A stretch of 63,112 bases of DNA, the filler included, from Dugesia japonica (lineage: Eukaryota), in the NCBI GenBank assembly GCA_001938525.1. It is 5 parts of 5 records of this genome, joined end to end, with 100 filler letters (N's around TTAATTAATTAA, not from the genome) between each part and the next. Parts side by side here need not be neighbours in the genome. Positions count along the whole stretch, not along the records: positions 10,806 to 23,820 come from MQRL01600624.1; 4 more parts are not named here. One strand, given 5' to 3'. The notes below the pieces were generated by a model. It searched no databases. It worked only from the letters and a program-made list of their open reading frames with translations, and was not told the DNA's origin. How positions within the stretch are numbered: the stretch's first letter is position 1; every line of letters begins with the position of its first letter. This document shows positions 3,176 through 34,617 of this stretch, in pieces. A program made the position numbers and the translations under genes.

Positions 3176-3229
3176 TATGTAAAAGGATTAAGAGAGGCTA
3201 TTTTTTCAAGTGGTTTTAGTTGGGTAAAT

Positions 3230-4130: not shown

Positions 4131-5688
4131 TTGGGCTGAATTTTTAAAAAATTCATAATAAAAGTCGAATTTGTTTAAATTTTCAAGTTTTTTTAAAAAA
4201 CAATTTATGGGAATGTTTTATAGGAATCAGGGCAAACCTGATATGAAAATTTAGAATTTTTGAAATGAAATTTTTATGGGAGTCTGGTTGAACATTCTCA
4301 ATCTTTGAAAAAAAATTTTCTATATCTCAATTTTCAAAGATTTTTTGTACCAAACTACTGAGAATTTTACGGCGATCATTTTTCATAAATGAAAATTTTT
4401 TGAAAATATCTTCCTTCTCAGATAGGTCAACAAAGTGTTTATTCGATAGAATATTTCGCTAATTTCAAACATGTTAACGTAAAATCTCCAAAGTTAATAC
4501 TCGATGTAATAAATAGGGTTTTGTGGTAAAAAATCTCAAATTTTGTATTTTTGTACTCAATTTTCACTGTGTGTATAACTCGTATGATTTCAAATTTTGT
4601 ATTATTTTATTCAGGAGAAAATATGATCTTAGAAAAATTCTTCCTAACGAATATGTACAGCCGTCCTCCCGGATTTTGGTAATAATTTTCGAAAATATCG
4701 AAATTGATACTATACGATTGCTTATATAGTAAATAACAATTCGGTTGGTACTCTTAAAGTAAAACACCATTGTTTTAAAAAATACATAAAAAAAATTAAC
4801 AATAAAATTTAATATTTAAAACTTAATAGTACTAATATTTTCATGTATTAAAAACTATTTAAATTAATTTTGTTTACTATTTTTAGATTAATGTTAATAT
4901 ATTTCCAATATAAAATTTAACACGGCATTAATTGATTTCAATGTCTTTTATATGGAATAATTAAATCCAAATAATTTAATTTGAAAATTTCATTTCAAAT
5001 TTTATTAATTAAAATTTTTAGTTAGTGCAATATTATATCAAGACAATTTTTTATATTTTTAACTTTCATATACAAACTTTCTGGAAAATCGTAACAACTA
5101 TTTAAGAGAAATTCAAGATCAGAAAATATATACGATCTCAGCGAATGATAATAAAAAATCTCAAAACTGTTATTAAAAAAATTGTTTGAATATTTGTAAC
5201 TAAGATATTTAAATTATTACTGTAAAATTATCTTTTCATTTTTAAAATTATAACTAAGTAATAAAGTTTATAATATAAATGTTCTGATAATAATATTTTT
5301 TATTAATGAACTATGTATTTTCTAAATATTTATTGAATAATTAGTCAAGTTACTATTGACAACCAAGTTAATTTCCTTTAATTAATTATTTACTTATAAT
5401 TAAATTAGATTTTTTATGTTATAAAAATAAGCCACTAAATTAAATTTGAATTATTTTTAAATGCGATTCAATTTGTTCCTTTTACATTTCAGATAATTTG
5501 ACAACATCATTTCGTAAAACTATTTTACGTTTTAAGAAATATATGATATGCGATCATAATAATTTGAATAAGCATATTAAAATCTGTAAAAAATTTTTTT
5601 TTATAAATATAATTTACAAAAAGTTTTTTCAGAATTGATTTATCTACTTAGTTAATTATTGAAAAAGTAGAAACAGAAAAATAATCTA

Positions 5689-6606
5689 ATGTTTAGTAAT
5701 GAGCCTGGCAGTAATCTCACAAAAGGTAGTGAAACCAAGAAATGTCAATCAGAAAATGAAAACGTGAAACAGAATAATTATGATAATGAAGAACAAATTA
5801 ATAATTTAGAATCAGAAATATCAACTTTATCTCGAGGACAGAGTTCATCTTATACAGATGATTCTCGTATCACGAGTTTCCGTGATATACAAACAAATTA
5901 TACAAATTATCCAACAAGTTATGATAATAAGACTTCTAATGCTTATGAAAAATATTCTAGTTCTAATTTGAAGAATAATTATTCACAAATTGATAATCAA
6001 TTATATTCAAATAGAAATTATAATAACGATTTATCGAAATATAAAAATAATTATTCAATCAATAAATGTGAAAATTGTCAAAAGTTGATCTTACAAAATG
6101 ATAATGCTCAATCAGAAATTAGAAAATTGAAACTGGATATTGATAAATTGAATAAACAAAATGAATCAACAATGACAAAATTCAATAAAGAAATGAAAAA
6201 ATTTGAAACAGAAATGAACAAGTACAAATCAGAAATTAATGAAAATAAATCAGAAAAAATAGAATTGAAATCTAAAATCGATCAATTAACATCAAAAAAT
6301 AGTAATTTTCTGTCCCCATATGATCAATTATTTTACTCAAATAACAATTTGCACAGTGAATATGAAAATACTAAACTGAAAATGAACAAAGCTGAACAAG
6401 AAATTAAAAAATATATATCAGAAATTGAAAACGTGAAACAGAACAATAATGATAATGAAGAACTAGAAAAACAAATTAATAATTTAGAATCAGAAAATAA
6501 TTCGATATTTGATTCGTTTTATTCTGGAACATCAAGATTGCCAAATAATAAAAATAATTCAGGAATGAGCTACGGAAATTCTAAATCTAAATATAAGAAA
6601 AAGTAG
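5689..6606 (+). CDS. Asn/Lys/Glu-rich coiled-coil protein with CxxC (NKCENCQK); unknown function
   Basis: 305-aa open frame in very AT-rich DNA with heptad-like composition; paralogous segments at 9397-10705 and 2620-3175. Confidence 0.6.
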   Translation: MFSNEPGSNLTKGSETKKCQSENENVKQNNYDNEEQINNLESEISTLSRGQSSSYTDDSRITSFRDIQTNYTNYPTSYDNKTSNAYEKYSSSNLKNNYSQIDNQLYSNRNYNNDLSKYKNNYSINKCENCQKLILQNDNAQSEIRKLKLDIDKLNKQNESTMTKFNKEMKKFETEMNKYKSEINENKSEKIELKSKIDQLTSKNSNFLSPYDQLFYSNNNLHSEYENTKLKMNKAEQEIKKYISEIENVKQNNNDNEELEKQINNLESENNSIFDSFYSGTSRLPNNKNNSGMSYGNSKSKYKKK

Positions 6607-7610
6607 TGAAAAAATTTCAATCCAAATATGCCTTGTTGTATGGTGATCCTTATATGACTTAATATGTATTATAGATATATTAATATTATATAAATATATT
6701 ATAAAGTCGATATTATTCAATTAAACACAAATATTTCCTTTGAAAATTTATATTAGTATAACAAATTAAACTCAATTACAAATTCAATTTAACAAGGTAG
6801 TATTTTGACTCTCAGATGTTCAATAACAAAAATTGAAAACTATTTTACGAGTTTTTTTAAGGGCGAAAATACATAAATAAGCAATAGTATTTATACTCTA
6901 TTGCTACCAATTACATATGTACATATAAATTGATTCAGCAAAACAAATAAACTTTATAATTAATTTTTTTCGATATTCATTTTTTAAATAAAATATTCCG
7001 ATAAAATTAAATATTTAAATTTTTTATTATTACAGTTTTAGCTTTTATAATTATTAAATCTGATATGAAAATTTAATAATTTACCAAATTTTCAGTTTGT
7101 TTATCTGGGCTAATTAACTAATTAAATAATTCACAATAAGTTAAATTATATAATAAATTAACAAAATAAAATATTAATTAAAAGTTTTATGATAGTACAG
7201 ATTATGTACTAAATTTGAATAAAGTTATAATATTATAAAATTATATATTATTATAAATATGAATATTATTTTACAATGGAGATTAAAATTTTTCCAGTAA
7301 TTTATATACCAAAATTAATAAAATGATCATAAAAATAGCAATACAATTAGCATTAAAAAAATGTTATAATAAAGATGTTAATTTAGATTAGATCATAATA
7401 CAGAAAAACGTCATTTGAATTTTAATTGTATTTTGATCGAATTATTAAATTATCGTCTACAGAAACTTGTTTCCTGGACAAAATTGATTAATTGAAAATC
7501 AATGTTACTTCACAGGATTGTTGTCAAGTTTATATTGTTATTTTTGTCTTGTGAATGCTGTGTTTGGTTAATTAGTTACATTATTAGTTACAATGTTGCT
7601 ATAAACTATA

Positions 7611-7643
7611 GTTCCTGAAGAAGGCATAGTCGAAATATTGAAC
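7611..7643 (+). ncRNA. Minimal type I hammerhead ribozyme motif (Penelope-associated type)
   Basis: GTTC-CTGAAGA-A-GGC-ATA-GTC-GAAA-TATT-GAAC: helix I GTTC/GAAC, CUGAnGA core, stem II GGC/GUC, GAAA, palindromic ATAT in place of helix III, NUH site AUU. Confidence 0.7.
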
Positions 7644-7954
7644 CATCTATGAAAATAGAAAAATATCGATTTGATTTTTCTAATTGAAAATAAGTTTCAA
7701 TTATCGAAATTTGTTTTTCAAAATATTTGTTTAATATAATAATCAATAGAAAAGGTTATTTTTAGAAAATAAATTTTGAAATCAAAATTGAAAAATTTAA
7801 ATTTTTAAAAATATTTTATTTTGATTTAAACTAAGATATTCATTTCTAGTTTAAGTACAGTTAATAAATTTTATGTATTCCAATTCAAGTTTAACAAATA
7901 ACTTTAACGAACGTTTTATAAAACAAATAGAAAAATAAATTTCAAATACAAGTA

Positions 7955-9360
7955 GGTAAATAGTGGCTCATGAGACCACTCACCCTCCGTCGGCAAACTG
8001 GGCTTAACTGTGACCTGGAATCAAATATACTGGGCTGAAAATTGGCCTGGTTTAAATATATAATGCTTTGAGACGCCGGGATCTTAGTTGATCGATCGAA
8101 TTTACATCCGGTTGAATCAATTGTGGGTCGTATTAACGACTTCGGAGAGCGACAAAGATATCGGGCGTGAACCGGCCCAGATCGCACGCTAGTAATTTTT
8201 TTCTCCTATCAACCGACCACTCCTCCCCCCGCTCCTGTGATACAGGCGTTTATCGCTAATCTTCTCTGGGGAGTCCGGGATCCGGATGGGGTGACGGATA
8301 TCGAGAACACGGCCCTTAATACTGACACAACTAATAATCAGTCCTAGTTTTGGTTGTTTTACCTAGAAATAAAATAAGTGTTTTCATCTTCAGTTATTTG
8401 TTGACTCTGCCTGTGAAACTATGTATTAGGAAGTTAATTAAAATTTTTTTTAATTTATTTTCGTGTAAAATTATGATAATACTCGTAACCAGATGTTTCC
8501 TTGTCAACTTTCATTTAATAATATGAGTGACCATGCTAATTCTATGTTTCTTATCTTAGATAATATCGGGCACAATGCAATCTTTTAAATATACTTTTAT
8601 TTTAGTGCATTCCTCATTAAACTGGTCCCTTGCCCCGACTAAGAAAGTTTCGGAAGATAGTGACGAAAAGGAAATGACCTAGGATCTGTATAAACTAGCA
8701 AAGAGGCGATGGGAGGCGGAGATCTCGACGGCCGAAGCCAAAGTAAAACGCTATAAGCGAAAATGTCTAATGTTTAAAGCGGAGATGGATGCCACCAAGA
8801 ATCAGGAGAGGGTGTGGAAGGCCCAAGTTGACAGCTTCGCCACAATTATTAAAACTTACCAGGAACGTGAAAATCAACTCGCCGAGAATATATTGAAGTT
8901 ACGGGCCACGATGCCTCTACAACCCCTCTTGATTGATAAAGGTACTCAAACCAATCGCTCCTGAGTGATCTCTGTTGTTGTGTTGCTGTTAATAAATCTC
9001 TTTATTTGTATCTTTTCGCTTTTACTTCTCCACTTTTGAACTGGGTTATTGTCAATTTAACTTTACTTTTGATTTAGTGCCACGAATTATTTTTCCCACA
9101 AGCCTGCGACGATGCCACCGGATAATGCGGCGCCTACTGGTAGAGAGGCATTTGAAACGAAAAACAAACCAAGCCCTATTGCGACACCTGGAGCAACGAA
9201 AGAAACTAATAAAGAAACTGGACGCAATAGTCAAGAAGCAGAACGACCTTGCAGTCCAAGTGAAGGCCCTAGAAGTCGAAAATAAACAATTATTAACAAG
9301 AAAAATTGAGTTCTTAAAACAATACATTGCGGATTTGTCGCGACAAATAGGCAACCCAAA
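7955..9360 (+). mobile_element. Internal fragment of a diverged family-X element (three-exon cassette, decayed)
   Basis: GC-richer island; ERQRYRA*TGPDR aligns with ERQAFYQWFGPNR (ORF 16899-17207); 8606-8964 and 9078-9360 are homologous to 17625-17979 and 18113-18495. Confidence 0.8.
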
Positions 9361-9370
9361 TTTAATTTAG
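9078..9370 (+). CDS. Element-borne basic coiled-coil (bZIP-like) exon, family X ORF3
   Basis: Starts at a tttag|TG acceptor; about three-quarters amino-acid identity to 18113-18495 by eye, with many synonymous differences. Confidence 0.55.
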
Positions 9371-9396
9371 TTAATAATGTTGGTAGAAAGAACTCA

Positions 9397-10705
9397 ATGT
9401 ATCGTCTCGATAGACCAAAAGTAATAAGAAGTAATAATAACGATACAAAAGATTCGTTTTATTCTGGAACATCAAGATTGGGAAATAATATGAAACAACC
9501 TGATAATTATTATAGTAATAACAAAGATATCAAATATAATCGAAGCGACAAAATCTATGATAATTCCATATTTGATTCATCAAGAAATATTGTTGAAAAA
9601 CAAAGAAATGAAATATTAAATACAAATTTCGTAGATTATTCTCATTGTGATGATATGAAAATAGGGAATCATCCAATCAATATCAGTGATAAGAATAGAA
9701 ATACTTTTATTGATTTGATAAATATTTCGGATGAAAATCATTATAGATCTAATTTGAATAAAAATAATTCAAAAATTGATAATCAATCAAATTTATGCAA
9801 ATATAATAATAATAATAATAATAATTATCCAATCAATAAATGTGTAAATTGTCAAAAGTGGATTTTACAAAATATTAATGCTCAATCAGAAATTGATAAT
9901 TTGAATAATCAATACAAATCGGAAATTAATATTTGTATTTGAATATTATCCGATTAAATAAAGATTATGAACCACAAATTAGGGAATACAAAACAGTAGT
10001 TGACAATTACAAATCAGAAATTGATGGAAATAAATCAGAAAATAACAAATTGAAATCAAATAATAAATTTTTATCAAATGAACTAGACAAACTGAGTAAA
10101 AACATTTGAGATTTGAAATTAGAAAATAAATCTTTGCGTAATTTGAAAATTGAAAAAGAAACTCTAAAATTGCAAATCAAGAAATATGAATCAGAAATAA
10201 AGAATTTAAACACACAAATCAATAATTTAGAATCAGAAAATAATAAAATTTTGAATAATTTGAAAATTGAAAATGAAAATCTATTATCGCAAATTAGTAA
10301 AAATGAATCAGAAATAAAGAAATTAGAAACGAAAATCAAAAAGTGTGATCTTGATAAAGAAAATAAAAATAATAATTGTCAAATCAACAGATATAAATCA
10401 GTTATAAATAAATTCACACCAGAAAAAGAAGGAACAAGATGTAGAACTGCTGAATCGAATAAACACAGTAATAATTTGTTTAATCAATACGAAAATGAAG
10501 AAATTAATAATTTAGAAAATAATAAAATTTTGAATAATTTGAAAATTGAAAATGAAAATCTAAAATTACAAATTAGTAAAAATGAATCAGAAAAAGAAAA
10601 ACTGCAAAGCGAAATCGATCAATTAAAATCAAATAATGAAAATCTGCAGTCCAAACTTGATGATTTGTATAAATCAAAAAATCAATTATTTGGCAAATAT
10701 GAAAA
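9397..10705 (+). pseudogene. Second copy of the Asn-rich coiled-coil gene (interrupted, runs into contig end)
   Basis: ORFs 9397-9942 and 10113 onward share DSFYSGTSRL, NKCxNCQK and QINNLESENN with 5689-6606; in-frame TGA at 10107. Confidence 0.55.
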
Positions 10706-10805
10706 NNNNNNNNNNNNNNNNNNNNNNNNNNNNNNNNNNNNNNNNNNNNTTAATTAATTAANNNNNNNNNNNNNNNNNNNNNNNNNNNNNNNNNNNNNNN
10801 NNNNN
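10706..10805. other. Artificial contig-joining spacer (N44-TTAATTAATTAA-N44)
   Basis: Exactly 44 N + TTAATTAATTAA (stops in all six frames) + 44 N; an identical structure recurs three more times. Confidence 0.97.
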
Positions 10806-11487
10806 AAAAAATAGTTTTTTATTTGAAAGAAGCGAGCAATAAATAGAAATTTTATTTCTTTAAAAGAAAAAAACTAAAATGTTGGATCACTTTAAAAAAG
10901 GAGTTGTTGCACAGTCTGATTTTAAATTATTATTCTTAATTTTTATTATTACCGTATTTTCCGAATTAAAAGGCGCGGGTAAAAACTTCTTTAGAGATAT
11001 TGGAAACTGACTATTTTTTTTACCACTTTTTAAAGTATTATTAAGATAAAAGCTTCAAAGTAATCAAAGAATCAATTATAAATGTTTAAAAAGCTGTCAA
11101 ATGTGTAAAAAATTTTAATTTATGTAAGGAGCAATTAAGGAGCATTGATTATCTCAAAAAAATCGGGTAGAGAGGGTTTGAAAACTCTGAAAATTATTGA
11201 CAAAGACTTTTTAATATAAATTTATTTGTGGGGAGGGGTAAACTTTTGTTGGCACGGAGGTTAAAAATTACTTGAGAAGTATTGACATAATTAATGGAAA
11301 GTTAGAAACCTGTAACTAAGAAAAATTATAAATAACAATAACTACTTGAATTTGTAGATAATTTATTTTGGAGTACGTTTTAAAGCCAAGTCGAAAATTA
11401 AATTTACAGAATATAGTTAAAAAATATTTTGAATAAAAATTATTAATAAATTATAGAAAAATTTCTAATCAGTAATATATAAGCTTA

Positions 11488-11929
11488 CATATCATTGACA
11501 ACGATTTTCTTTTCATCGATTATATCTAATAAACCAGATTATCATAATTACCAAGTTACTTTATTTACTTATATTACCAACTTCCATTTTTATAGAATTA
11601 CTTATCTTCTGATTATTTGTACTAATGTATTTATTTTCCTTTTGCTCATAAATAGATGGTTTATTTAGATTATTTTTAATCTTTCCAAAATCATAACCAA
11701 GTGGTAATTTACATTTAGGAACAACACCGTGCATCTTATCAAAAGCGTCACCAGCTTTACATAAGTCTCTAAGTAAATCCGTCGACATTTCCATCATGCT
11801 ATTAACATACATACATTCCGGATCATCTTTTGGCAGCTATTGTTGAAAGGTAATCACAAACTGACTTTTAAAATCTTCAAATTAACTTACTTTATTTACA
11901 AGTTTCGATTTTTCAAAGTTTTTATTCAT
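11488..11929 (-). CDS. Small spliced gene, hypothetical protein (MNKNFEKSKLVNK|LPKDDPECMYVNSMMEMSTDLLRDLCKAGDAF...)
   Basis: ATG at 11929; canonical GTAAGT...AATAG 54-nt intron (11890-11837) joins in frame to ORF 11561-11812; further GT-AG introns at ~11577-11526 and from ~11487. The 3' end is uncertain. Confidence 0.55.
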
Positions 11930-14900
11930 CTAAATATTTAAATTAATTATAAGTTGACTAACTTAAAAATAATTTTTATTTAATAGCATTATTTTAATTA
12001 AAGGAACATAATTTTAAGAAAGCAAGTTTATTTTCAAATTTTAATTTAGCTAAAACAATTATTGAATATTATGAGAAATAAATTTAACAAGAAACAATAA
12101 AAAATATACAAGGCTGTAAAGTCGCAAAATTCTCTTTAAAATTACCTCATCTATAAATTTAGAAAAGAAATTAATACATTTTTTAAAACAAATAAAATTT
12201 TAAAGCATGTATAATTTTTATACTGAATTGATTAATCATTTTAAATTTATAAGTATTTATTTTTATATAAATATGAAAGTTTGATTAGATTAATCATAAT
12301 ACTCTGAATTTTGTTATTTGGTAGATTTTCATTGAAAATGTTTAAAAACTCAGTTTGTTTAAAAAAACGTTTTACACTATTGTAAAGTGATGTTTGTATG
12401 TAGAAAAAGAATGGTTTTATCATATTACAAACTTTGAAAACCTCAGATTTTTATAGCTTATTATAGCTTTAATTTTGAAATTATATTTTCTTAATTAAAA
12501 TTTTAAATTTCAGATGTTCTTCAAATTGGTTAATTTGTATAATTGNTATTTTGTATAAAAAACAAAAAGTTTTTTAAGAATAATTGGTATTTAGAGAAAA
12601 TATTTTTTTAAATGTAGCGTTAACTTACTAAATTATTTTCCTTTAAAAATATATTATGAATTTAATTACCACATTTGTACTGAGACTAAATCTCACATAA
12701 CGCGCAATTAACTCCCGCGTTTTCCCATTTATATTACACTTAATTCCTAATTAAGAATGAACTTTAAATTGCGGAATCAGTCTAACTTCGAAATTCTCTA
12801 ATAGTATTAAATACATTTTGTTGAATTTCCATGAATTTTGGTCTTTTTTTGAATTTCTTGGTTTTGTCACAACTCGAATGCTAAGAGTGTGATTCATGAG
12901 AACCACGGATATTTATGGATGTNTCACATTTGTCTTCAAAGATATCCTAGTGACTCTGCATCTCTTACAGAGTTGACGAAATTCTTTCTGTAGGGTTAGT
13001 GATTAAATCACTAGCTCGTCTTACTATTGCTTAGACATAATAATCCAAAAGTGCTTGGCTCAGTACTTCACTTATCTTTTAATGGGCGCAGAAGTTTAAA
13101 ACTTACGTTAAGCATAAACTAGCTACACATAATTTGAATAATGTTGGGATCCTGAGAGCTTTCACGATGCTTAAACGATCAAGTTATTTATTACATTAAT
13201 ATTTCAATGTACAGACTAAAAAATCAGTTAAAAAATGGCAAACATATGAAATATCCGTCAAAAAAAGATTTTGAATGAAGTCCATGTCTGGTGACTGAAA
13301 ATTCGTAGTAGCATCCGCCATTTCGAAAACAAACAAAATAAGAGTTGTCTTTAAATAGCACTAGAAAATAATCTGTCTTCAACTCAATATGTTTGAAAAT
13401 CTATCTTACTTCTTTCAACAGCTGCTGTTATCACATAAAATTCATGAACTCATATGTATTAATAACTCTATCTGAACTCAACGAAAGATGAATGGTTACT
13501 CAGTAACCCATATTCCTCTCTTAACTTTATACTGGTTAGAACTATATTGCTGATTGGAGATTCATTCATACCTGGAGAACAAACTCTCTGTTTGTAAATG
13601 ATCCTCTTAGCAAGAAAGAAGTTCGTAAATGTCGACTTAGCAAATTTTTATCAGAAGCTCAGATACATATAGTTATCTGGTGTCAATACTCAAATAATTA
13701 CTGCTATAAGAATTTGAATTCTCTGGCTTTCACCATGTTAAATTATTCACAGATAAAATTTATTTTTATTATTTTTAAAGGTAAATTGTGTAAATAAATA
13801 AAGAAAATAGAATAAATTATTGCAAGAAGTGTATACATTATTATAATTATTAGCCGCTGCTTTATTTTTCCTAGTTTTAATCTGTAAATATTTATTAATA
13901 AGTGATAAGTTATAAGTAAATTCAGTGAAAAATTTATTCTATAACAAAATAGTAACATTAAAGCATTTAATTGTCTTAATTATTTTCTTCCTTTTGTTGG
14001 GGTAAAAAACGCCCGCTAAACGGGAGTAAGCTGAAAAATTAAAGCAACGGATAATAAGCACGGGACCACAATAATCACCGNNNNNNNNNNNNNNNNNNNN
14101 NNNNNNNNNNNNNNNNNNNNNNNNNNNNNNNNNNNNNNNNNNNNNNNNNNNNNNNNNNNNNNNNNNNNNNNNNNNNNNNNNNNNNNNNNNNNNNNNNNNN
14201 NNNNNNNNNNNNNNNNNNNNNNNNNNNNNNNNNNNNNNNNNNNNNNNNNNNNNNNNNNNNNNNNNNNNNNNNNNNNNNNNNNNNNNNNNNNNNNNNNNNN
14301 NNNNTGAAATTCGCTGAAAAATCTATTTTATCCGGATAACTTTGCTCCAGGAAATCGGAAAGAATCGGGATAAAAAAATGAAAAGAGCACATTACGGTGC
14401 AACTGAAATTATAAAAAAGAAAAACGTACCACCTTCCAGAAGGGTACCACAAGACTTTTAAGATCCGGCCAATAGAAAACCTGAAATTAAAAATATAACA
14501 AAGACCCAAAAATCATGTGGTCTGATAAAAATAGCTGCCAATAGTAGCACCAAAATTCAGAGAAAATTTTAGAAAATCAGCACGAGAACCAATGGAAGTA
14601 GAAAAAAGCTGATCTAAAAATATCAGCAAATCGGGGCATAGTTGGGGTGTAAGTCAAACCCTATGAAAGGAACCTGCAAATTTAGAATAATATAACTTTT
14701 TGAGAGAATTCAGTAAAACATCTGACTCCTAAACTATAATTTGTGAGGATATTGAATCGAAGTAATCATACAACTTATACTATCCTCGGCCAATCTCAAA
14801 ATCAAACAGTTAGTCAAATCGGAGAAATTACTTTTCCATTTTTAAAAAAATTTCAATTCAGAAACTCCATTACTTTCACGGAAAGGAAAGAAGGAATCAT

Positions 14901-16898
14901 AGTGATCCCTAAACGTTCAGTTCCTCAACAGAATAAAAATAAAACAGAAGTAATTTGTCTCTCCAATAGACTACTCTACATTCGTGCTAATCTTCCGTTG
15001 CAGAAAACCCGTTAATTGAAGTAAAATTTTATTCTAATTCNNNNNNNNNNNNNNNNNNNNNNNNNNNNNNNNNNNNNNNNNNNNNNNNNNNNNNNNNNNN
15101 NNNNNNNNNNNNNNNNNNNNNNNNNNNNNNNNNNNNNNNNNNNNNNNNNNNNNNNNNNNNNNNNCTATTAAGTAAAAGGGATTAATTCCATTTTTAGAAA
15201 TTTTTGATTTCATAATCAATATTGTTTAACAGTTGTTGCAATTAGATTTATAGGTAACTTCCCGGCTATTTTTAGAAATAATTATGTTACCATAAATAGC
15301 CCAACCACAGTAATATTTTAAATGATCTGCCAATGTAGATTTAACATCGATCTATTTTTAGTAATTTTCCCCTCCTGGGCAGTCAACAAATTACCACAAG
15401 TGTAAATTTCTAAGCTATCTAAACAGCCATGTTATCTCAACAATGTATGAAACAGACTGATGTCAATTCCCAGATAAAATATATATAAATGATTCTTTCG
15501 ATTGAATTTAGAAAGAAAAATAACTGTCTATCACACACGGCGTTGCCGGAATTAACAATTAGCGACTTAGTTCCAACTCGGCATAAAATTCGTAAGCTGA
15601 TCAAATCACTCCATGGAAACAGAAACGTAAATCCAGCGGTGAACATCTAATATAATTTAGCTGTCACTCATCACACACGCATGCATGCACCCCGGACACA
15701 CCCACAGTGTGCATCACACATCTACTACCACAATAAAAATAAATCGAGTACAATGTTATGACCTTGAACAGTAACCAGGGGCAACCCAAACCCTCGCAAT
15801 TTAAATAGACATAATTTTGAAAAAATCCACTATGATTAAATTTTCACTCCTAATTCCGATAATCTAATATCATCACAAGTCGTTCAGGCCGGTATCCAGC
15901 AATCGATAATAAATTCATTTTGAATCGCTAAGTAAACAATTACAAGAATTTACCTATATTAGGTATGGGTGTTGCTTATCATTCATCTAACAAATTGAAT
16001 AAAAAAAATGTGGTTTTGGTGGTAGAATATTGCGCACGATAAATCATTTAAAATATGTTTGCTGATTAATATAGCGTAAAATGGTAACAACGTGGCATTC
16101 CATAAATTAGAGCCCAACACTCTAATTTTTCATCATTTTCTGGGATTTTTCGCATGGCTGATTTATAAATAAGATCGAAGCTATTGAATAAAACAATAGA
16201 GAAGTCAATACTGGCATCGGTAACTCTCCAGGAAATTATTGAGTTTAATATATGAGAAATCACCGTTTTGATTTACGCGTTTTTTGGAGGAACTCAATTT
16301 TTAATTATAATTCGTAACGGCTAGGATTTCCGAATTAACTTCTGGAGATAGTTAGGTGATGGGAAAAACATTACCATATTTATTAACTTCCGAATTTTTC
16401 TGCTTAATTTAAAGTAAAATAGGTTCATTTGTTTTGATAGATCATCCAGTCNNNNNNNNNNNNNNNNNNNNNNNNNNNNNNNNNNNNNNNNNNNNNNNNN
16501 NNNNNNNNNNNNNNNNNNNNNNNNNNNNNNNNNNNNNNNCTCTCGCACGGGGTAATCGAACATCCCGACGACACGGATTTAGCGTGTCTCGCAGAAATGT
16601 TTCCTCTACCTACTCCAGTGGATCTTGATGAGGAGTGAACTTACTAGACAAGGAAAACCATTGCTGACCCTAGTTCGCCTGAATAAAATATAATCGTCCT
16701 CGTGACTTATCTGTTGTTTTGAAAATCGGCTCGTAGAGTTGAATTACTATTATAACTATTCGTTGATTTTTTAAAATTTTTTTGTTGTTGTCAAAAAAGT
16801 ACTTGTTATTGTAGACACAGCTAAATGGATCACGTATGGGAACTGCTATGCGATCGCCGCACGGGGCGTACCATATTTAAAAGATATAAGAACCCAGC

Positions 16899-17207
16899 AT
16901 GACCGTAACGCAGGTATCTATAACAGATTATTCTAACATGCCCAGTGAAGATGCAGATAATGAAAGAGAGGTAGTCGCTGCAGAGCGTCAAGCTTTTTAC
17001 CAATGGTTTGGTCCAAATCGTATCCAAGAAGTACTAAATCGGACCACTGGCTTGGATCCAATAGTTAATCAGTCCATTAGTCAGTGGCGGGATGGGCCGT
17101 CATTGTCGCCGGTGTCACTCACCCACCTTCCCAGAGGTACTAGATTCTCTCTAGACATCGGTAACACTCTGTGGGATCTACGAAATCAAGCTAGTGGTGG
17201 CATCTAG
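16899..17207 (+). CDS. Family X ORF1 (hypothetical)
   Basis: Open frame homologous to the decayed 8060-8200 region; candidate acceptor tgtag| at 16814. Confidence 0.4.
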   Translation: MTVTQVSITDYSNMPSEDADNEREVVAAERQAFYQWFGPNRIQEVLNRTTGLDPIVNQSISQWRDGPSLSPVSLTHLPRGTRFSLDIGNTLWDLRNQASGGI

Positions 17208-17624
17208 AAAATGCAGAACCCACTTCCTGACCATCTATGTTACTAGTGTGTCAGTATCATGATTTTCATAATTCGAATACATGTTTGTGTGTCTATTAGA
17301 TATTTTCTTTTANNNNNNNNNNNNNNNNNNNNNNNNNNNNNNNNNNNNNNNNNNNNNNNNNNTGATTTTCATAATTCGAATACATGTTTGTGTGTCTATT
17401 AGATATTTTCTTTTATCGAGGGCTCTTCAGCCGTTACCTATGTACATTTCAATATTTTCATTGTTATGGGCTTTTCTGCCATTACCAAAAGCTTCCCCTT
17501 TTTTGTAGAAACCGACCAACTATGAATATTTAATAAACTATAACAAAAAGAATTAATTAATTATATCTTTTGTTTAGGTTACATAAATTTCTAAATCTTG
17601 CTCGCGTTAATGTGTATCTTTTAG

Positions 17625-17979
17625 TGCATTCTTCATTAAATCGCCTTGCGGCCCTTACCAAGAAAGTGCAAGATAACAGCAAGGAGCGCAAGATGACATG
17701 GGACCTGGATCGATTAGCCAAACGTAAATGGGAGGCGGATACAGCCAACGCCAATAGTAAGGTAAGCCGCTACCGAAGGAAATGTGTGGCTTTCAGAAAA
17801 GAAGTCGAAGGCTCCCATGCACAAGAGAATGAAAGGGGCAAGTGGAGTCACTGGTTGACATGATCCGGTCCTACCAAGACCGAGAAAATAAACTGATGAA
17901 TGACGTTTTGAAGTTGAAGGCTTCCATGCCACTCGAACCGTTAATGGTAGAGAAAAACACTCAGACCCATAAGAATTAA
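17625..17979 (+). pseudogene. Family X ORF2 coiled-coil exon ending in KxTQT (one frameshift near 17835)
   Basis: tttag|TGCATTC acceptor shared with 8606; the C-terminus MPLEPLMVEKNTQTHKN* aligns with MPLQPLLIDKGTQTNRS* (8770-8964). Confidence 0.6.
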
Positions 17980-18112
17980 ACTGAGGGCTCATCTTTGTTA
18001 ATAAATCTTGTAGTTTGAACTGTCTTATCGATTTACTTTTCATTGTTTTCTTTATGTGGGTAGTCATTTGCCAATGTGAAAATTCTATTAACATTAACAT
18101 TAATTTCTTTAG

Positions 18113-18495
18113 TGCCTCGTATCCATCTCCCGAACAGTCTTCGTCGGTGCCACCGCATTATGCAACGACTTCTTATCGAACGGCATTTAAAGCGTAAAGT
18201 AGACCGAACAATGCTTAATCAATTATCGCAGAAGAACAGACTGATAAAAAAGTTAGATCTCATCGTAAAAAAGCAGAACGACCTTGCGACTCAAACAAAG
18301 GCCTTGGAAGCCGAGAATAAGCAATTATTGTTAAGAAAAATCGAGTTCTTAAAACAATATATTGCTGATCTGTCCCGTCGAATAGGTCACCCATCTGTAA
18401 CACAATGGGATGAGGAGGACGACATCGCCGCTTTCAACTTCGCGGTAACGGAACCAGATCAGTGGTTAGATCCTGGGGCGCTAGATCTGCTTTAA
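18113..18495 (+). CDS. Family X ORF3, basic coiled-coil (bZIP-like) exon with acidic tail
   Basis: Intact frame from the tttag|TG acceptor; conserved with 9078-9360; followed by AATAAA. Confidence 0.6.
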
Positions 18496-18754
18496 ATTTT
18501 TTTTTATAAAATAAAATGTCTGTGTTCGAATTTAGAATTTCTTATTTTCAACAGTAACAATAAAGGAAAATCATTGAACCCGAATATAAAGGTTTACTGG
18601 TGCGTACATTCCGTTAAGAGTAAGGTCAACCGCCATAAACTGAAAACCTACCCCAAGGGCGGTAGGGTAAATTTTTGATAGGGTTCCCCTGAGGGCTGTT
18701 TTTTCCCCAGCCATCGTGTTGCGACACTCAACTCAGGTGGGACCCCAACACTTT

Positions 18755-19120
18755 TATTTTAAATTTCTTTCATGATTAATACATAAAACCTTAATGAAAC
18801 TCTTTAAGAAATTTTAACTTGTCCATATTTCTGTAAATAACTCTTTCTTACCTGTTGTATAACCTCTACCTTCTTTCATGGATATTTTCCTTTATCAATT
18901 ATGGGTCATTGTATCTTTCCTTGTTCTTTGACTGTACTTCGTTTTTCACAAATACTTTTTAACAAATTTTGAAGGCATAACGAGTTGAGTATCATTCTAC
19001 ACTGGTCAACCTCTCTTCAACCTCTTCGTGATCGATTCATCGTTCTCTTCAAATCTCTTTACCTTACACCAAGACTACTTAGATAGTTTTAATCGTCTTT
19101 TGATGTGTGGCGTTCATCAT
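18755..19120 (-). mobile_element. Gypsy integrase C-terminal remnant
   Basis: Minus strand MMNATHQKTIK and VKNEVQSKNKERYNDP*LIKENIHERR resemble IKIETRNKSQDKFA*PYQIIERIHERR at ~31700-31780. Confidence 0.55.
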
Positions 19121-20419
19121 GTACTATAATTATAAATTGATAATTAATAATTATTTTAATTTCTCTATTCAAATTACAAGATTTACATGAAATTGTTTTT
19201 CAAATTAAGTGAAATTAATAATTTTTTATAAGTTTTTTCAAGGGAAATCAATGAAAAAGCAATTTTTGTATAAATTAACCATAACTTTCAAATGTTTAGA
19301 TAGTTAAGCTAGGTCTCACTCGGGCTATAGTAACATTAATATTAGAAGCTCTCTGGGCAATATTGTCCCTTAAATTTGTATCTATGTCAATAAAATCCTC
19401 TTCTTTTAGTTTTTATTATCATTAGTTGCTTCACCAAACAATAAGCTCTTCTTCCGAGGAAATAGCTGTTTACTTGAATAATTAGCCACTATAAAATTCC
19501 CGTATAAAATATATTCTCAAGAAAAAAATCATTGTTGATTTTTATGTTTGAGTAAAATTATTAACAATAATATCATTAAAAAGTATTTTCATACATTGCT
19601 TCAATAACAGTTTTGTTTTCATTCAATGCCGTTACATTACCTCATTTGACATGTACAATCAAGCCGCAGGTATTCCATCCATTCACATCCGGTCTAAAAT
19701 TGTAAACGCAGATATTGTTAATATCCAACCGGGTACATTCATAATTGAACCTATCGATTAGATTGCGTAGTTTTCACTAGGCTAAACTCGATTAAAGAAT
19801 GTGCATATCCAATGGCAGAGCTTCCGGCTATTTTGATTTGGTCTCAATTGTACACCAAACAAAAACTAGAACTGTCTTTATCTAATCTATATGTGAGAAA
19901 TAATAAATCAGACACTCTATAAACCCGTTTAACTGTGTACAACATACACAACCCAATAGTCATTAAACACTATAAACGATAAAATTATGTATGTGTCAAC
20001 AAATCAATGAACCTTTTTTGAGAATTTATACACCGATACACACGTGTCTTACATAACCGTTGACATACTACATAATCAATTGCATTGTAATCAAAATAAT
20101 TGTAAAGTCTTATAGTGTTTTATAGGGATTCTATAGGGTATTACAAGATCTTTGCAAGAATGTTTTGAAAAGCGGGTTGAAATTTTTGTGTGTCGTTGGA
20201 AATCTTTTTNNNNNNNNNNNNNNNNNNNNNNNNNNNNNNNNNNNNNNNNNTAAATTTTTGCACAAAAATTAGGAATTAGTTTAATGATTAGTTAATGACT
20301 TTTTTTGTTAATGATAAAAATATTTTAATTAATAAATTAAATAATAAATGGCTATTTACTTAAAACGTCAAAAATATTTTTAATTGAAAATTTAATTATA
20401 TAATAAAAAATTTTATTTT

Positions 20420-21489: not shown

Positions 21490-22920
21490 ATCTTCTTAAA
21501 AGCGATAGTATTTATGCATCAACCTAATAACTATAAATTTATTTAATAAAACAAGGTGAAAGAGAAACTAAAAATTAATTAAAATAATTTATTTTAATTC
21601 CTATTGGTTGAAATTTTTCCTAATTATTTCTTTAAAACCCTTTTCTTAAGAAACTTTCAAAGTTTTCACATTTCTCATCAATCACTTTCCATTTTCTCTT
21701 TGTACTGCACACGGTGTTTGTGAATTTTCTCAATTATTCAATTAAAACCTAAAAATTTGTCTTGGCTATTATTTCCTTTTTTCTACTTTGATAATCTTCT
21801 ACTTTGAATTCTCTATTAATAATCACTTCTGAAATAGTTTCTTCAGTTCTTTCTGAAACGTCTGACATGTATCATTTTCTCAGCTGATTTTCTTTTAAAA
21901 TACGATCTTAATCGAGCTCTTTCCAATCATCTTCTGCTTAGTTGGGTTTATCGTAAATTCTATTTCCAGTAAAATGTCTGCCAAATCTGTCTTCTTTCTC
22001 TTTTAAAATGTTGTATTAATTAAACCTCGAATTGTCCTGAACAATCACTCAATTTGTCCGTTTGCATTGTAATGATATGGACTTGAAAAGCAAAGTTTAA
22101 TATTCAGCTTCTGTACAAACTCTCTCATAACTTTGGATTCCAAGGCTTTCCCANNNNNNNNNNNNNNNNNNNNNNNNNNNNNNNNNNNNNNNNNCCGCTT
22201 CTCAAAAAAAGCTTTTCGTACTGTTTCTTAGTCTTGTCTACTCAACACTATACGAACCCGATATTTACTGATCTGGTCGATTATTTCAGGAATACATTTT
22301 TTCATCCACTTGTTTCCCGCATTAGCCCATATATTTCTGTGAACATGACTTCGGACAAATTGGTAAATTCTTAATTTAATTATATTCTTTTAATTATATT
22401 CATTGTCTTCTCTTTAATTGCTGTACTCATTACTTTGGTATTCAGACAAACTTCACAACTACGAAGTATTTCCTGTATTGGTCTCCATAGATTCTCTGCA
22501 ATATGTCTGTCTCTTATGTACCCTAACATCTTTTCAACTCCTGCATGACATAATAATGTCGTGTACTTTGTTATCCAGAAATTTTGTTTTCGTGATTAAG
22601 TTTTTTCTTCAGAAATGTTTAATTCTTCTTCTTTTTTCTTTTCTATTGTTTGCAGTACTTTTGTTTTAATTTTTTCTTTCTTAGCATCTTCATGTGACAT
22701 TTGACATTATACACATACCCTACATCTTGGTCTAGATAATATATATGCATTACCATGTAGAATTTCTTTTCCATATTCTAATACCATGTACAAACTACTA
22801 AGATAATTAATCCATTTCTGGAATTGTAATGTAATTGGTTTCTTCGTGGTCATCATGAAACATAAAGCTTTATGATCTGTCATAATAGCAAACTTTCAAC
22901 CGCACAAGTTATTAGATATT
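21490..22920 (-). mobile_element. Gypsy LTR retrotransposon 3' fragment (RNaseH-integrase-PPT-LTR), related to 27930-32045
   Basis: Minus strand encodes SSPYHYNANGQIE and a TEICGL-type integrase core; purine tract aagaaaaggg at ~21640 is followed by LTR-like aagaaataatta...ccaatag. Confidence 0.75.
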
Positions 22921-23820
22921 TTAAGATAACTAAGTGGCAGGAATTCAATCCAAATCTAATACAAAACTTAAGATAATCAAATTAATTAACTTTGATATAA
23001 GATCGTAGTAGGATTTTCTCCAAAATCTAATATCAAACTGATCAATACACGGTATATTTTTAGAAAGGTCTGAACACCCACTTGATTTTAAACTTATTTT
23101 AATACTTTTTATTAATTTGATTCCCAATTCGCGGCACCAAATTTGTTGAGTATTTCTACTCAACAAAGAGATGTTATGGTTNGTATTTGAAACTATTGTA
23201 AAAGATATAGGTAACTAATTTTACGGGTGTTTGATCTTAATTGATTTTCTTGTATGTCAATACGATATTTGATAAGCGATATTTTATTAAAGTATGAGTA
23301 TAGTTATATAGTGTATGAAATCCTATATAAATAATTAAATAACAACCTTTCAATAATATTTTATTTTTGANNNNNNNNNNNNNNNNNNNNNNNNNNNNNN
23401 NNNNNNNNNNNNNNNNNNNNTTTATTAATTTGATTCCCAATTCGCGGCACCAAATTTGTTGAGTATTTCTACTCAACAAAGAGATGTTATGGTTTGTATT
23501 TGAAACTATTGTAAAAGATATAGGTAACTAATTTTACGGGTGTTTGATCTTAATTGATTTTCTTGTATGTCAATACGATATTTGATAAGCGATATTTTAT
23601 TAAAGTATNAGTATAGTTATATAGTGTATGAAATCCTATATAAATAATTAAATAACAACCTTTCAATAATATTTTATTTTTGATGTATAAACAAATATCA
23701 AAGACGTATAATACAATCTTATAGGCAGAATTGAAATTAAATGAACTACTGCCGCTCTGAGAGATTGGAGTGTTCAATAATTTTGAAGTCTGTTTAACAC
23801 TAAAAAACGATCAGTATATA

Positions 23821-23920
23821 NNNNNNNNNNNNNNNNNNNNNNNNNNNNNNNNNNNNNNNNNNNNTTAATTAATTAANNNNNNNNNNNNNNNNNNNNNNNN
23901 NNNNNNNNNNNNNNNNNNNN
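23821..23920. other. Artificial contig-joining spacer
   Basis: N44-TTAATTAATTAA-N44. Confidence 0.97.
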
Positions 23921-24698
23921 TAAAACCTTTGCAATATAATAAAAATCTTGGTATACAAGCTCAAAAATATGCGGAAGTACTTGCTAAAAAAGATGTCATG
24001 GAACATAGTAAAAACGAAGATCGAGATAACGCTGGAGAAAATTTAGCATTGAGCATGATGGAAGTCACTGATTACAAATATTCTGGTAAATCATGTTTAC
24101 ATTTGATAATTTATTTCTTATTGTCTATAGGGTTGGGAGCAAGTGTAAGTTGGTATTCGGAAATNNNNNNNNNNNNNNNNNNNNNNNNNNNNNNNNNNNN
24201 NGGGAATCCGGCAACTGGTTAATAATTCTTATCAATTATAATTCTTAATTTATTCAGGTCATTTTACTCAGCTCATCTGGGAAGATTCAAAAGAAGCTGG
24301 TTTTGGAAGAGCAATGAATAAAGAATCTAAAATATGGTATATTGTCGGTCGTTATCAGCCACCAGGGAACTTTGTAGGAAGCTATAAAGAAAAAGTATTG
24401 CCTTTACCAAAAGGAAGTTAGCTCTTTTCATCAATTTATGCTTATATAAAATTACTAAATAGAAAAATGGGACACAATTCCAATTGTTGAAGAACGCTTA
24501 GAAGAGCTCCGAACTATTGAATATACTAAAGCTCGTAAACATATATTAGATAAATGGTCGGCCGAATGGGAAATGGGAACAGATAACGGTGTATATTTTT
24601 GCAATATTACTGAAACATTTACAACTCCAACTGGATCAAAATATACTGGAACAAAGAGTTTCTCAGAAGATCCCAGTGAATTAGTATGTATCAAATAA
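23921..24698 (+). CDS. CAP/SCP (GLIPR2/GAPR-1-like, venom-allergen-like) protein, 5' truncated
   Basis: Exons 23921-24085, 24131-24217, 24258-24416 and 24463-24683 with 45/40/46-nt GT-AG introns; motifs HS..., GENLA, WYSE, GHFTQLIW, VGRYQPPGN. It either ends at TAA 24698 or splices on from GTATGT at 24684. Confidence 0.9.
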
Positions 24699-27929: not shown

Positions 27930-28119
27930 TATAAGAAAATAATTATTATTTAATATTTTTAGCCAATAGAAATTGAGTTAATTCAGTACTAAGTTTCAAT
28001 CAGTTCTTTTCAATGATAATTATTTATAAATAGCAGAGTTGTAGTAGTAAAATAAATGATATCCCAAAACATTAGTTCTGGTTTGGAAAATGAATTACCA
28101 ATTGAAGATTTACCTAAAA
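27930..28119 (+). repeat. 5' LTR
   Basis: Direct repeat of 31856-32045 with scattered substitutions. Confidence 0.92.
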
Positions 28120-31100
28120 TGGTGGCAATGGTCAATACCGATTCCAATACAGAGAGGTTATTGCTGAAAGATTTTTGCAGAGGAGATGACATTGAAAAAT
28201 TCATCAAGCAGTGTGAATTGTATTTTGAAGAAGAGATTAGTCTCTTGTATGTTAGATGAAGATTTGTTGGAAGAATTTGCAAAAACTTTGAAAAAAGTTA
28301 AAGGATTTCAGGGTCATTAACGTATGGCATTTAAGAAAGAGAAAGATGCTATCAAAGATTTTCAAAATTTGATTAACTACAGGTGTGGAAATGAAAAGAT
28401 TCAAAATTATTTTAAAAATGTAAAAGATTTAGTTGAAAGATTATTTAAAAATAAAGATTTTACTTAAGAAAAAATGGTAGCAAAGATGCTAGTATATTGT
28501 TCAGATAAAAAAAAAGTTAAAAAAGAAGTAACTTTGAGGAAACGAGAGAATATAGAAGAAATTAAAGAAACAATAACTTTAGTAGATTGACTAGAGAAAA
28601 ACCGAGATCGAGTTGATGCAGTTAGAGTTACAAATCGAAATTATCAGAAACCTGTAAATCATACAGTGAATAGACATGTATAGCAAAGAAAAGAAAAATA
28701 AAATATCGAATGTTGGTCATGACATAAGATCGGTCATACTAAAGCGAGTTGTCCGACAAAAAAATTGGAAGTGTGCTAGAATTGTCATAAAACAGGACAT
28801 ATAAGCTGAGATTGTTCAAATAAAAAACCAACAAAATATTTTGGATGTGAAAAGATTGGTCATATTAGAAGGTTATGTCAAGAAGTAAGGTGTAAACGAT
28901 GTGGAAATGGTGGACATAGAGCAGAAGAGTGCTACACAAATTTGAAAGCGAAAAGAACAAGTGAGAAATTTATGACTGCAGTAAGATCAAGAAACCGATA
29001 TAATCGAGTACATGCGATTGCACATGAAGATGTCCGTATAAACGATGGATATGAGAAAGTATATGAAAGTGATTCTGAAAGGCATTAACCAAACGCCAGA
29101 GCTCCACCAGTAGAGTAGTTGGTTGGAGCCATCCATTTTTAAATGAAGTTAGTAACTATCATCAAGGGATCAAAAAGTGAGATGAGATAGGAAAATTTAT
29201 AGAAAAAGTATACAGGTTCTTACAGAGGGAAAATTTTGTGGATGGTAGAAAAGTAGAATGGTTTGGAACAGATGAAGCATATAAGAAAACAAATATTTCG
29301 TAACATAAATGGCAAGGCAGATCAAGTGCTACAGTATCAATTCAAGGAAATAAAGTCGAATGTCTATTAGATACATGGGCTAGAATTAACGTGATGAATT
29401 TGAGTTGTTTTAATAAATTACGAGAAGTAAATTTAAAAATGAGTAATGAAAAATTGCTTTGTGCACATTGTAGTACACTTGAAATTGTTGGGAAAGTTAG
29501 AACTGGAGTGATAATTGATGAAGTTTGCGAAGAGATTACTTTCTTAGTTGCTGAAAAAGTAACACCAGATATGAGAAATAGATATTCAAAAGATATTTGG
29601 ACAATTTAGTACACTTGAAATTGTTGGGAAAGTTAGAACTGGAGTGATAATTGATGAAGTTTGCGAAGAGATTACTTTCTTAGTTGCTGAAAAAGTAACA
29701 CCAGATATGAGAAATAGATATTCAAAAGATATTTGGACAATTTCGACAGACAATTGAATGCAGTAACGAAAGGACAAGCCTTTCCTAGGAATAATGTCGA
29801 TGAAATGCTGGACAAGTTAGATGGAGCCAAATATTTCAGTTCAATAGATTTAGGTAATGCATACTTTCAGGTAGAGCTCGAAAAAGAATTTCAAGAAAAA
29901 ACGGCGTTTTCAACAAAGCATGGACAATATTGTTTTAATAGAATGCCATTTGGCATAGCAAAGGCACCAGGGACATTTCAATAGATGATGACGAAAGTGG
30001 TAGGCTGAATCAATGGAGCCATGGTTTATCTTGTTGACATTTTGATATTTACGAACAATAAAGAACAACACTATGAAGTCATTGAAAGAGTATTGACGGA
30101 AATAATGAAGGCTCGACATAGAATTAATCCAGAGAAGTATCAGTTTCTTCAAAGCGACATCAAGTTTCTTGAACATATAATTAACAAAGATGGAGTCAGA
30201 ACTGATCCATCTAAAATAGAAGCACTGAGAACATTTGGCAAACCTAACTGTGTGAAGAAGTTTCTTAGGAAAATGTAATTATTATAGAAAGTTTATAGAA
30301 CACTACGCAAGAAAATCAAGGATCTTAGAGCAGTTGTGTAGCAAGCCAAGCAAAAAAAAATTAGAATGGACAGATGAAATAAACGATATTTTTGATGGTC
30401 TAAAAAAATTTCTAATGACTGCACCCATATTGTGTTTTTCAGACATAAACAGTATTGTCACAGAACGATAAGGAAGGAAGAGAAAGAGTTATTGCCTATG
30501 GATCACACTCAATGACGAGTCATGAAAAGGGATATTGCATCACACGAAAGGAGTTTATTGTTTCTACATGCACTTTAAACACTTTTTGTATGGTAGACGA
30601 TTTACTCTTAGAACAAATCATAAAGCGCTAACCTTCATGATGACAACGAATAACTTGCGTCACAATTTCAGACATGAATTAATTATCTGAGTAGTCTAGA
30701 CATGGTTTTGGAATAAAGAGAAGAAATTCAACATGGAATGCAGATATGTTATCTAGACCAAGATGTGAGGTATGTGTAAAATGTCAAATGTCACATGAAG
30801 ATGCAAAGAAAGGGAAGAATAAAACGAGAATAAACATGATAGAAACAGAAAAAGAAGAGCAATTATACATTTCTAAGGACACAGATTTAATCTAGAAAAT
30901 AAAAATTTCGGAGGACAAAATACTTAAGACAATAGAAGAAATACATAAATTAATATGTCATGCAGGAATTAAGAAGGTGTAAGAATACATGAGAAACAAA
31001 TAAATTGCGAAGAACTTGTGGTGCCGAATACAGAAAATAGTTCGTAGTTGTGAAATTTGTCAGAAGGTTAGTGACGACAGCAACTAAAGAGAAGACAAAG

Positions 31101-31855
31101 AAATTAGAAGCTACCAATCTGTTTGAAGTCATATTCATAGATATATGTGGGCCAATGCAAGAAGCAAGTGGACGAAAAAAATACATTCTTGGAATAATCG
31201 ACCATTTTAGTAAAGATCTGGTTCTTATACTATTGATTAGACAAGACGATAAAACAATACGAAAAGCTATTTTTGAAAAGTGGATATTAATATTTGGATG
31301 TCCAAGAGAAATAAAACTCGATTGTAAAAAAGCTTTTAAATCCAAAGTTATGAGATAGTTCGCTCTGAAGTTGGATATTAAACTTTGCTTTTTGAGTCCC
31401 TATCATCATAATGCAAACAAACAAATTGAATGACAGTTCAGGACGATTCGAGATTTGATAAATGCAACACTTCAGGAAAGAAAGACAACAGATTGGGCAG
31501 ATCTTTTATGGAAAGAAGATTAGCAGAGAAAAATGGTATGAGTCACTTCAGGAAAGAAAGACAACAGATTGGGCAGATCTTTTATGGAAAGAAGATTAGC
31601 AGAGAAAAATGGTATGAGTCAGACGTTTCAAGTCAAACTAAAGAAAACACTTTAAATGAGAATACAAATAGAGAATTTAAAGTGGGCGATTTTGTACTCA
31701 TTAAGATAGAAACAAGAAATAAAAGTCAAGACAAATTTGCTTGACCTTATCAAATAATTGAGAGAATTCACGAAAGACGGAATGCAGTACAAGGAGAAAA
31801 TGGACCGCCATTAGAATAAAATGTGGAAAAACTTAGAACATTTTTAAGAAGAGGA

Positions 31856-32045
31856 TATAAGAAAATAATTATTATTTAATATTTTTAGCCAATAGAAATT
31901 GAGTTAATTCAGTACTACGTTTCAATCAGTTCTTTTCAATGATAATTATTTTTAAATATCAGTGTTGTAGTAGTAAAATAAATGATGTCCCAAAATATTA
32001 GTTCTAATTTGGAAAATGAATTACCAATTGAAGATTTAACTAACA
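31856..32045 (+). repeat. 3' LTR
   Basis: Preceded by the polypurine tract; ends in ...TAACA. Confidence 0.92.
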
Positions 32046-34479: not shown

Positions 34480-34617
34480 TCATTAATCAGAAATTATTGA
34501 AATATAAAAGATACTCATGATTATAATATAATTATGATACTTTATAATTATTATCATTAGTATCCTGTAAATTTCAATAATTTCTGATAAAAATTAAACT
34601 GATATTTATATTTACAG

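Follow-up and report, generated by a model that had tools for sequence, protein, structure and literature searches.

The DNA analysed here, hereafter the window, is a stretch of 63,112 nucleotides from Dugesia japonica (assembly GCA_001938525.1). It contains a 4.8-kb element, likely a solo giant LTR, in which four acceptor-led exons (E0 to E3) were found rather than the three originally predicted; E1, E2 and E3 correspond to ORF1, ORF2 and ORF3. A second, diverged version of part of this array (copy 1, ~7950-9365) is a fragment without element ends. The features needed below are as follows:

7960..8348, plus strand: copy 1, decayed GC-rich ORF before E2; in-frame stops; AATAAA at 8368
8606..8964, plus strand: copy 1 E2; TTTAG|TG; frame interrupted by a stop at 8680-8682; D-K-G-T-Q-T near 8935-8952; AATAAA at 8991
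9078..9370, plus strand: copy 1 E3, truncated; TTTAG|TG; similarity extends over 96 codons, up to 9365
13991..13994, no strand: left target-site duplication CTTT; chance of a 4-mer match ~0.006
13995..18750, plus strand: whole element (4,756 bp with its four N gaps), likely a solo giant LTR; 9-bp inverted ends
14307..14690, plus strand: promoter-like block of putative function; CCAAT at 14469, 14538 and 14589; TTGGGGT at 14642; degenerate TATA near 14662
16441..16638, plus strand: E0; AG at 16439-16440; N gap 16452-16539 in the middle; acidic C-terminus; AATAAA at 16682
16815..17207, plus strand: E1 (ORF1); AG|AC; ATG at 16825; frame broken near 16.9 kb; 3' part 16890-17207 open
17625..17979, plus strand: E2 (ORF2); TTTAG|TG; reading frame disrupted at about 17.83-17.86 kb; K-N-T-Q-T at 17953-17967; AATAAA at 18000
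18113..18495, plus strand: E3 (ORF3); TTTAG|TG; intact, 126 codons; AATAAA at 18510
18573..18750, plus strand: conserved terminus, likely core promoter-R-U5 (putative role); TATAAA at 18585; candidate donor A|GTAAGG at 18619|18620
18751..18754, no strand: right target-site duplication CTTT, matching the left one

Several other features share the window. At 27930-32043 lies a small gypsy-like element in decay, whose 188-bp direct repeats are 95% identical and which retains remnants of a zinc knuckle, a protease and an integrase; an inverted partial relative occupies 21596-22892. These appear unrelated to the giant element. The alpha-tubulin at 54178-55848, which is divergent and ends in a long acidic tail, is 96% identical to one database protein and, among the 120 matches listed, 65-67% identical to trematode and monogenean proteins (the best named full-length ones) and 46-57% to those of most other animals, which identifies the host as a flatworm. 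AT-richness, short introns and AAT repeats would suit a planarian in particular. Repeated AT-rich pieces of an Asn/Lys-rich coiled-coil ORF, with no Pfam family above cut-off, are present at 5671-6606, 9310-10705 and 2913-3183, and 117-bp repeats associated with these pieces flank copy 1 on both sides. At ~23920-24400 there is a multi-exon gene with short introns, which we take to resemble a CAP/SCP-domain gene, while 50554-50864 and 34483-34591 are short self-inverted, MITE-like elements (80% and 83%). Sequence is duplicated around the N gaps at 17260-17415, 23108-23683 and 318-1018; these are likely assembly artefacts, and spacer lengths are uncertain there.

The element and its termini

The element begins with TGTTGGGGT and ends with ACCCCAACA (TGTTGGGG…CCCCAACA in short). 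It has the TG..CA ends with short inverted termini of an LTR and a 4-bp target duplication, where 4-6 bp is expected, and it is repeated with varied flanks. Its 3' boundary is sharp, as 16 and 18 contigs from two public runs part ways behind 18750 (agreement 0.51 and 0.52). DNA contigs were present in all 30 bins of 15200-18700, the last bin being by far the deepest; the terminus is indeed very high-copy, with a summed contig depth of 286,445 in 18593-18700 vs 1,043-79,231 over E2-E3. Within the window we found five similar 5' ends, at 13995(+), 1580(-), 2579(-), 44071(-) and 56816(+), of which the latter four share the pattern TGT[TC]GGG[GC]TGAAA. The promoter-like block is 72% and 65% identical to the 5' ends at 1580(-) and 2579(-), with equal spacing of the CCAAT boxes and a clear TATA in both. 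The 5' end at 1580(-) begins 999 bp inside the one at 2579(-), and its TATA box is followed by 37-bp tandem repeats.

Given its short TG..CA ends, 4-bp duplication and promoter block, the element fits a solo LTR, and we regard 13995-18750 as probably such a giant LTR. The parent retrotransposon is likely of the Ty3/gypsy type and, by analogy, would be Burro-like in size. This setting supports the virus-like context that had been proposed for the ORFs. Within the window we saw neither a second LTR paired with this one nor a primer-binding site or gag-pol belonging to the element, and pattern searches for related loci gave no confirmed match (0/7 and 0/185). The terminus folds no better than shuffled sequences (z -1.44), and its motif was absent from viral contigs; a single match in metagenomes, of 56% GC, was dismissed as chance. 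No Rfam family was detected in 7500-19500, and a tRNA scan found none.

ORF2 and ORF3 are coding sequences under purifying selection

The original prediction held that the two copies differ mainly at synonymous positions, that the ORF3 protein is about 75% identical by eye and that its third positions are heavily changed. Counting bore out each of these statements: 70 of 96 ORF3 residues are identical (73%), the differences at codon positions 1, 2 and 3 number 23, 17 and 53, and pN/pS is 0.21 (bootstrap 0.13-0.31; pN 0.17, pS 0.83 and thus saturated), vs 1.19 and 1.39 in frame-shifted controls. For ORF2, which was analysed as two separate parts, pooling gave 58/113 identical residues and a pN/pS of 0.36 (0.28-0.46). 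We report pN/pS instead of dN/dS because synonymous sites are saturated and dS has no usable value. Across the two copies in the window both ratios are well under 1, the outcome expected under selection; ORF2 and ORF3 are genuine coding sequence under purifying selection, even though E2 is broken in both copies.

Similarity between the copies was said to start abruptly at TTTAG|TG (8606 against 17625, 9078 against 18113), and AG-anchored comparison confirmed this. All four sites read TTTAG|TGC, and TTTAGTGC occurs only six times on the window's two strands, four of these occurrences being the E2 and E3 acceptor sites. In ungapped translations, 0/16 (ORF2) and 1/16 (ORF3) residues are the same upstream of the AG, vs 10/15 and 12/15 downstream; at nucleotide level, identity over -45..-6 is 12/40 and 8/40, respectively. 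Alignment of the ORF2-ORF3 spacer is weak (z 2.3) and due mainly to a common AATAAA box; it falls to z 1.6 once this box and the acceptor are removed, and the region before ORF2 does not align between copies (z -0.4). Seven contigs of one run (X9) likewise start matching at 18108, where TTTAG begins, the sequence before it being unlike.

The absence of an ATG near the 5' end of ORF3 also stood: in both copies the first in-frame ATG is codon 16 of ORF3 and codon 23 of ORF2, and the ORF3 codons before it are constrained, 13/16 amino acids being the same although 10 of those 13 codons differ. Only in copy 1 does ORF2 have an in-frame ATG upstream of the acceptor (8575). T-rich tracts precede the AG at the E2 and E3 sites, with a branch-like TTAAC/TTAAT 13-25 nt before it at three of the four and TTAAA at the fourth. 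We consider it probable that the acceptors are used. The acceptors of E0, E2 and E3 pass our acceptor filter; 16815 was judged by eye. This third predicted site is an acceptor-like AG, but it reads AG|AC; an ATG follows 10 nt further in (16825), and no counterpart could be demonstrated in copy 1. By eye, the upstream ORF of copy 1 had looked like a relative of E1; tests for E0/E1 homology failed (z 1.1 and 0.4).

The exons form GC-rich blocks (44-51% GC) separated by AT-rich spacers (29-31%) on a background of 20-25%; E0, for instance, has 51% vs 31% in the spacer that follows. No paralogy was found among them, E2 and E3 being unrelated. Each exon had been described as having its own stop codon, which we could verify, and an AATAAA lies within 50 nt behind the stop at five of six ORF ends across both copies (p 4e-4; truncated copy-1 E3 left out), or at four of five when E2 is counted once (p 2e-3), more often than chance predicts. 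For E1, no AATAAA occurs before the N gap at 17313. The exons are likely to be used as alternative 3'-terminal exons. The broader claim that they are spliced to a common leader is supported in part, by the selected ORFs, the acceptors conserved between copies and the paired stop and AATAAA.

Instead of an LTR, the element could be a Ginger-like DNA transposon, non-autonomous and bounded by short TG..CA ends, that captured host exons together with their acceptors and poly(A) signals; the acceptors would then simply have come along. Ginger-like elements are compatible with a 4-bp duplication and TGT..ACA ends, and neither an internal region nor a second LTR was seen here. Against this, the inverted ends measure 9 bp only, the ORFs have 42-51% GC on a 20-25% background, no host or other homologue was found and selection has lasted through synonymous saturation, which makes such an origin quite improbable.

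Transcripts were sought in 8 of 24 listed public runs (four raw RNA, three contig sets guessed to be RNA and one DNA). The RNA (poly(A)/cDNA) runs yielded 1, 13, 3 and 77 matched reads from 6-26% of each run; none was 99% alike, and all but two fitted partly only. No splice joint of the GT..AG type or ending on an acceptor was present among 5/5 and 15/25 joints listed, in reads that were few and divergent and in which a 12-nt leader would not register; 8/311 and 24/909 loose read ends were inspected. The junction reads predicted at 17625, 18113 or the other acceptors therefore did not appear among the few divergent reads of the seven RNA or RNA-guessed runs. Reads over E2 were mostly first mates on the plus strand (4.66 vs 0.25 in run X21), which would be antisense if the library is stranded. 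This copy of the element appears decayed and little expressed.

The missing junction reads would also suit expression without any splicing, from a separate start site per ORF (a TTAGT initiator) or by a GTG start within TTTA-GTG. TTAGT is similar to the invertebrate initiator and GTG is in frame at all four sites. However, translation starts poorly at a GTG that lies one base from the cap; no TATAAA precedes E2 or E3, and T-rich tracts and branch-like motifs stand before the AG. We judge this very unlikely.

A candidate start codon made by splicing

Splicing in the same phase, as originally predicted, fits the data insofar as the phase is common to the sites; a coding leader ending in phase 1 fits less well than a start codon split as A|TG, given the TG opening and its kept G. 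Of the 390 acceptor-like sites in the window, no more than 25 are followed by TG, and yet the unrelated E2 and E3 both open with it. The G of this TG is kept in E2 and E3, vs 12 of 42 four-fold third bases kept overall and 2 of 15 among those with a G in one copy. TG is the sole dinucleotide that yields ATG after an A, and E1 has an internal ATG of its own; together these point to a non-coding leader. It is likely that this leader ends in A, so that splicing would create A|TG, and we lean, if only slightly, towards a start codon split in this way.

If instead an upstream coding exon, in the LTR or the internal region, ended in phase 1 and were joined to E0-E3, the products would share an N-terminus and G|TG would encode Val. 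Splice donors usually end in G, the phase-1 frames of E0 (AG|AT) and E1 (AG|AC) are also open for some length, and the N gap at 15041-15164 could conceal such an exon. None was found in the readable sequence, however; E1 has its own ATG (16825), and both the TG start of two unrelated exons and the kept synonymous G would be left unexplained. We thus hold a coding leader to be unlikely.

The same frames bear on trans-splicing to a flatworm spliced leader, which had been offered as another source of the leader. The host is a flatworm, and planarians do trans-splice according to the text available from PMC12582326, where the reported flatworm leaders end in ATG. The ATG of such a leader would read phase 0, which closes after 4 and 25 codons in copy 2 and after 4 and 15 in copy 1, whereas phase 1 is open for 78 and 126 codons in copy 2 and for 24 and 96 in copy 1. 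Trans-splicing would therefore give the wrong frame and is extremely unlikely.

For the A|TG reading, the candidate donor A|GTAAGG in the conserved terminus is one of seven GT[AG]AG sites in the element; the probability that such a donor turns up by chance in the 178 nt of the terminus is 4.5%. Its bases at -1 and -2 are non-consensus, and the leader it implies is only ~12 nt long. A donor in the same LTR is the competing choice, and 18619|18620 has a modest edge over it in our estimate. In that case the leader would come from the CCAAT/TATA promoter at 14.5-14.7 kb with the split start retained, and each solo LTR would be its own transcription unit. The block is conserved in three 5' ends with similarity stopping just behind the TATA, 14670-15040 has no ATG, there are several A|GTAA sites behind the block (14761|14762 is one), and an AATAAA per exon would suit such units. 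Conversely, the donors there are weak, none being GTAAG, the TATA is degenerate in this copy, and in the 2579(-) copy the best donor ends in C instead of A; like a coding leader, this promoter is an unlikely source.

Under the terminus-based reading, transcription of a full-length element would begin within the 5' LTR, in its conserved terminus (TATAAA at 18585), giving a short non-coding leader that ends in A at the donor 18619|18620. A splice would then span the internal region to an acceptor in the U3 of the 3' LTR, as with retroviral leaders, and A and TG would be joined into the initiator of E2 or E3, whereas E1 would use the ATG 10 nt behind its own acceptor. Each message would terminate at the AATAAA behind its stop, and unspliced genomic RNA would make none of these proteins. 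Also against this scheme are the second conserved CCAAT/TATA block at 14.5-14.7 kb and the need for genomic RNA to read through four AATAAA inside the LTR. Expression by way of splicing that completes a split start codon is our best reading, and we assign a probability of roughly 40% to the whole explanation, that is, a solo LTR of a giant Ty3/gypsy-type element with four ORF-like exons, two under shown selection, and start codons made by splicing.

Predicted proteins and known systems

E3 is predicted to form one helix (residues 7-90) followed by a low-confidence tail. Its charge is polarized, with 13 K/R in residues 1-45 and 9 D/E but zero K/R in 93-126, and the tail is acidic and aromatic. 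Canonical bZIP proteins follow the signature N-x7-R/K-x9-L-x6-L. This signature is absent from both copies, and bZIP_1 scored 14.3 bits vs a cut-off of 27.6, so E3 is not a canonical bZIP. Based on the model, a role as a coiled-coil transcription regulator is conceivable but tentative. E2 is predicted as a long helix (2-76) and then a low-confidence coil, and both copies carry a KxTQT (LC8-type) motif, accounting for two of the five such matches in 126,220 six-frame residues. In the parts of PMC3078936 consulted here, the LC8/DYNLL motif [K/R]-X-T-Q-T lies in disordered segments, often flanked by coiled coils, and E2 might bind this hub.

Database searches gave little. None of 11 candidate homologues of E3 was significant among 5.8 billion proteins of lengths near the query, and E2 had no candidate under the same length limit. 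Against 1.84 billion representatives of any length, E3 had one match, a 2,917-aa repeat protein reached via 11 summed stretches, which we consider spurious. No exon exceeded a Pfam cut-off. By sequence, the PDB returned one designed repeat protein for E3 (E 5e-4) and nothing useful for E2 and E1; the best ESM Atlas hit for E3 (0.76) was uninformative, and a fold search of its helix against viral models gave 0/16 matches under E 0.001.

LC8 has a role in PIWI/piRNA silencing in flies, and if E2 binds it, E2 would be a candidate modulator of PIWI-guided silencing. Planarian stem cells rely on PIWI control of transposons, as stated in the accessible part of PMC8532177. More speculatively, and on balance rather improbably, giant planarian LTRs could be accessory-gene cassettes, in which, much as in a complex retrovirus, a tiny A-ending leader switches on LTR exons by completing the start codon of each, the exons including a transactivator and an LC8-binding coiled coil countering PIWI silencing. 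If true, thousands of LTR copies would add a layer of unannotated protein-coding sequence to the planarian genome. Spliced exons inside the LTR would give a reason for the several-kb length of planarian LTRs and provide the most abundant planarian retroelements with unannotated regulatory proteins. They would also be a testable case of splicing-gated translation acting on several genes together.

The literature searched, which lay outside the primary Burro paper and Repbase where they may be described, contained no account of spliced accessory ORFs lying inside an LTR, whether in retrotransposons of planarians or in others. Among the closest known systems is Burro/GYPSM1, a giant Ty3/gypsy element of planarians with an internal region of up to 25 kb and a total of over 30 kb, implying a multi-kb LTR (PMC6431247, in part). 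It resembles our element, by description only, in its flatworm host, its many copies, its multi-kb terminal repeat and its virus-like extra coding; it differs in that the passages available describe extra polyprotein domains and an upstream accessory ORF, not LTR-resident or spliced ORFs (PMC6431247). Ogre elements of plants have comparably long LTRs (1.9-6.5 kb), but their extra ORFs are placed in the internal region, according to the same excerpts (PMC6431247).

GLT2 of Schmidtea mediterranea, a PIWI-silenced transposon in the portion of PMC8532177 at hand, may offer an independent case. Read by eye on the reverse strand, its probe (supplement of PMC8532177, as far as available) has a T-rich tract and TTTTGTTTAG|TG, behind which the same phase stays open for 78 codons, with the first ATG at codon 31. 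To the eye it shares with E2 and E3 the T-rich spacer, TTTAG|TG and a long open frame without an early ATG. The reverse strand of the GLT probe from that supplement shows, by eye, a CCAAT box and a TATA-like motif, then open frames with their own ATG (PMC8532177, in part).

Small accessory ORFs near the 3' end are familiar from viruses. In complex retroviruses, small spliced accessory genes overlap U3, as in HIV nef, MMTV sag and foamy virus bel. As is proposed for the exon array, these are small spliced regulatory ORFs in or beside the 3' LTR; unlike them, the exons described here have no sequence similarity to these genes, and four stand in tandem with poly(A) signals in an invertebrate retrotransposon. 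A precedent for completing a start codon by splicing comes from insect ERVs of the springer subclade in Drosophila, whose env is spliced from an AU dinucleotide, as reported in the part of PMC12992720 available to us. There, as proposed for E2 and E3, splicing completes the start codon of a subgenomic message; in the springer subclade the leader gives AU and env, which lies in the internal region, is the only target, whereas here the split would be A|TG and the targets several LTR exons, none of them env-like.
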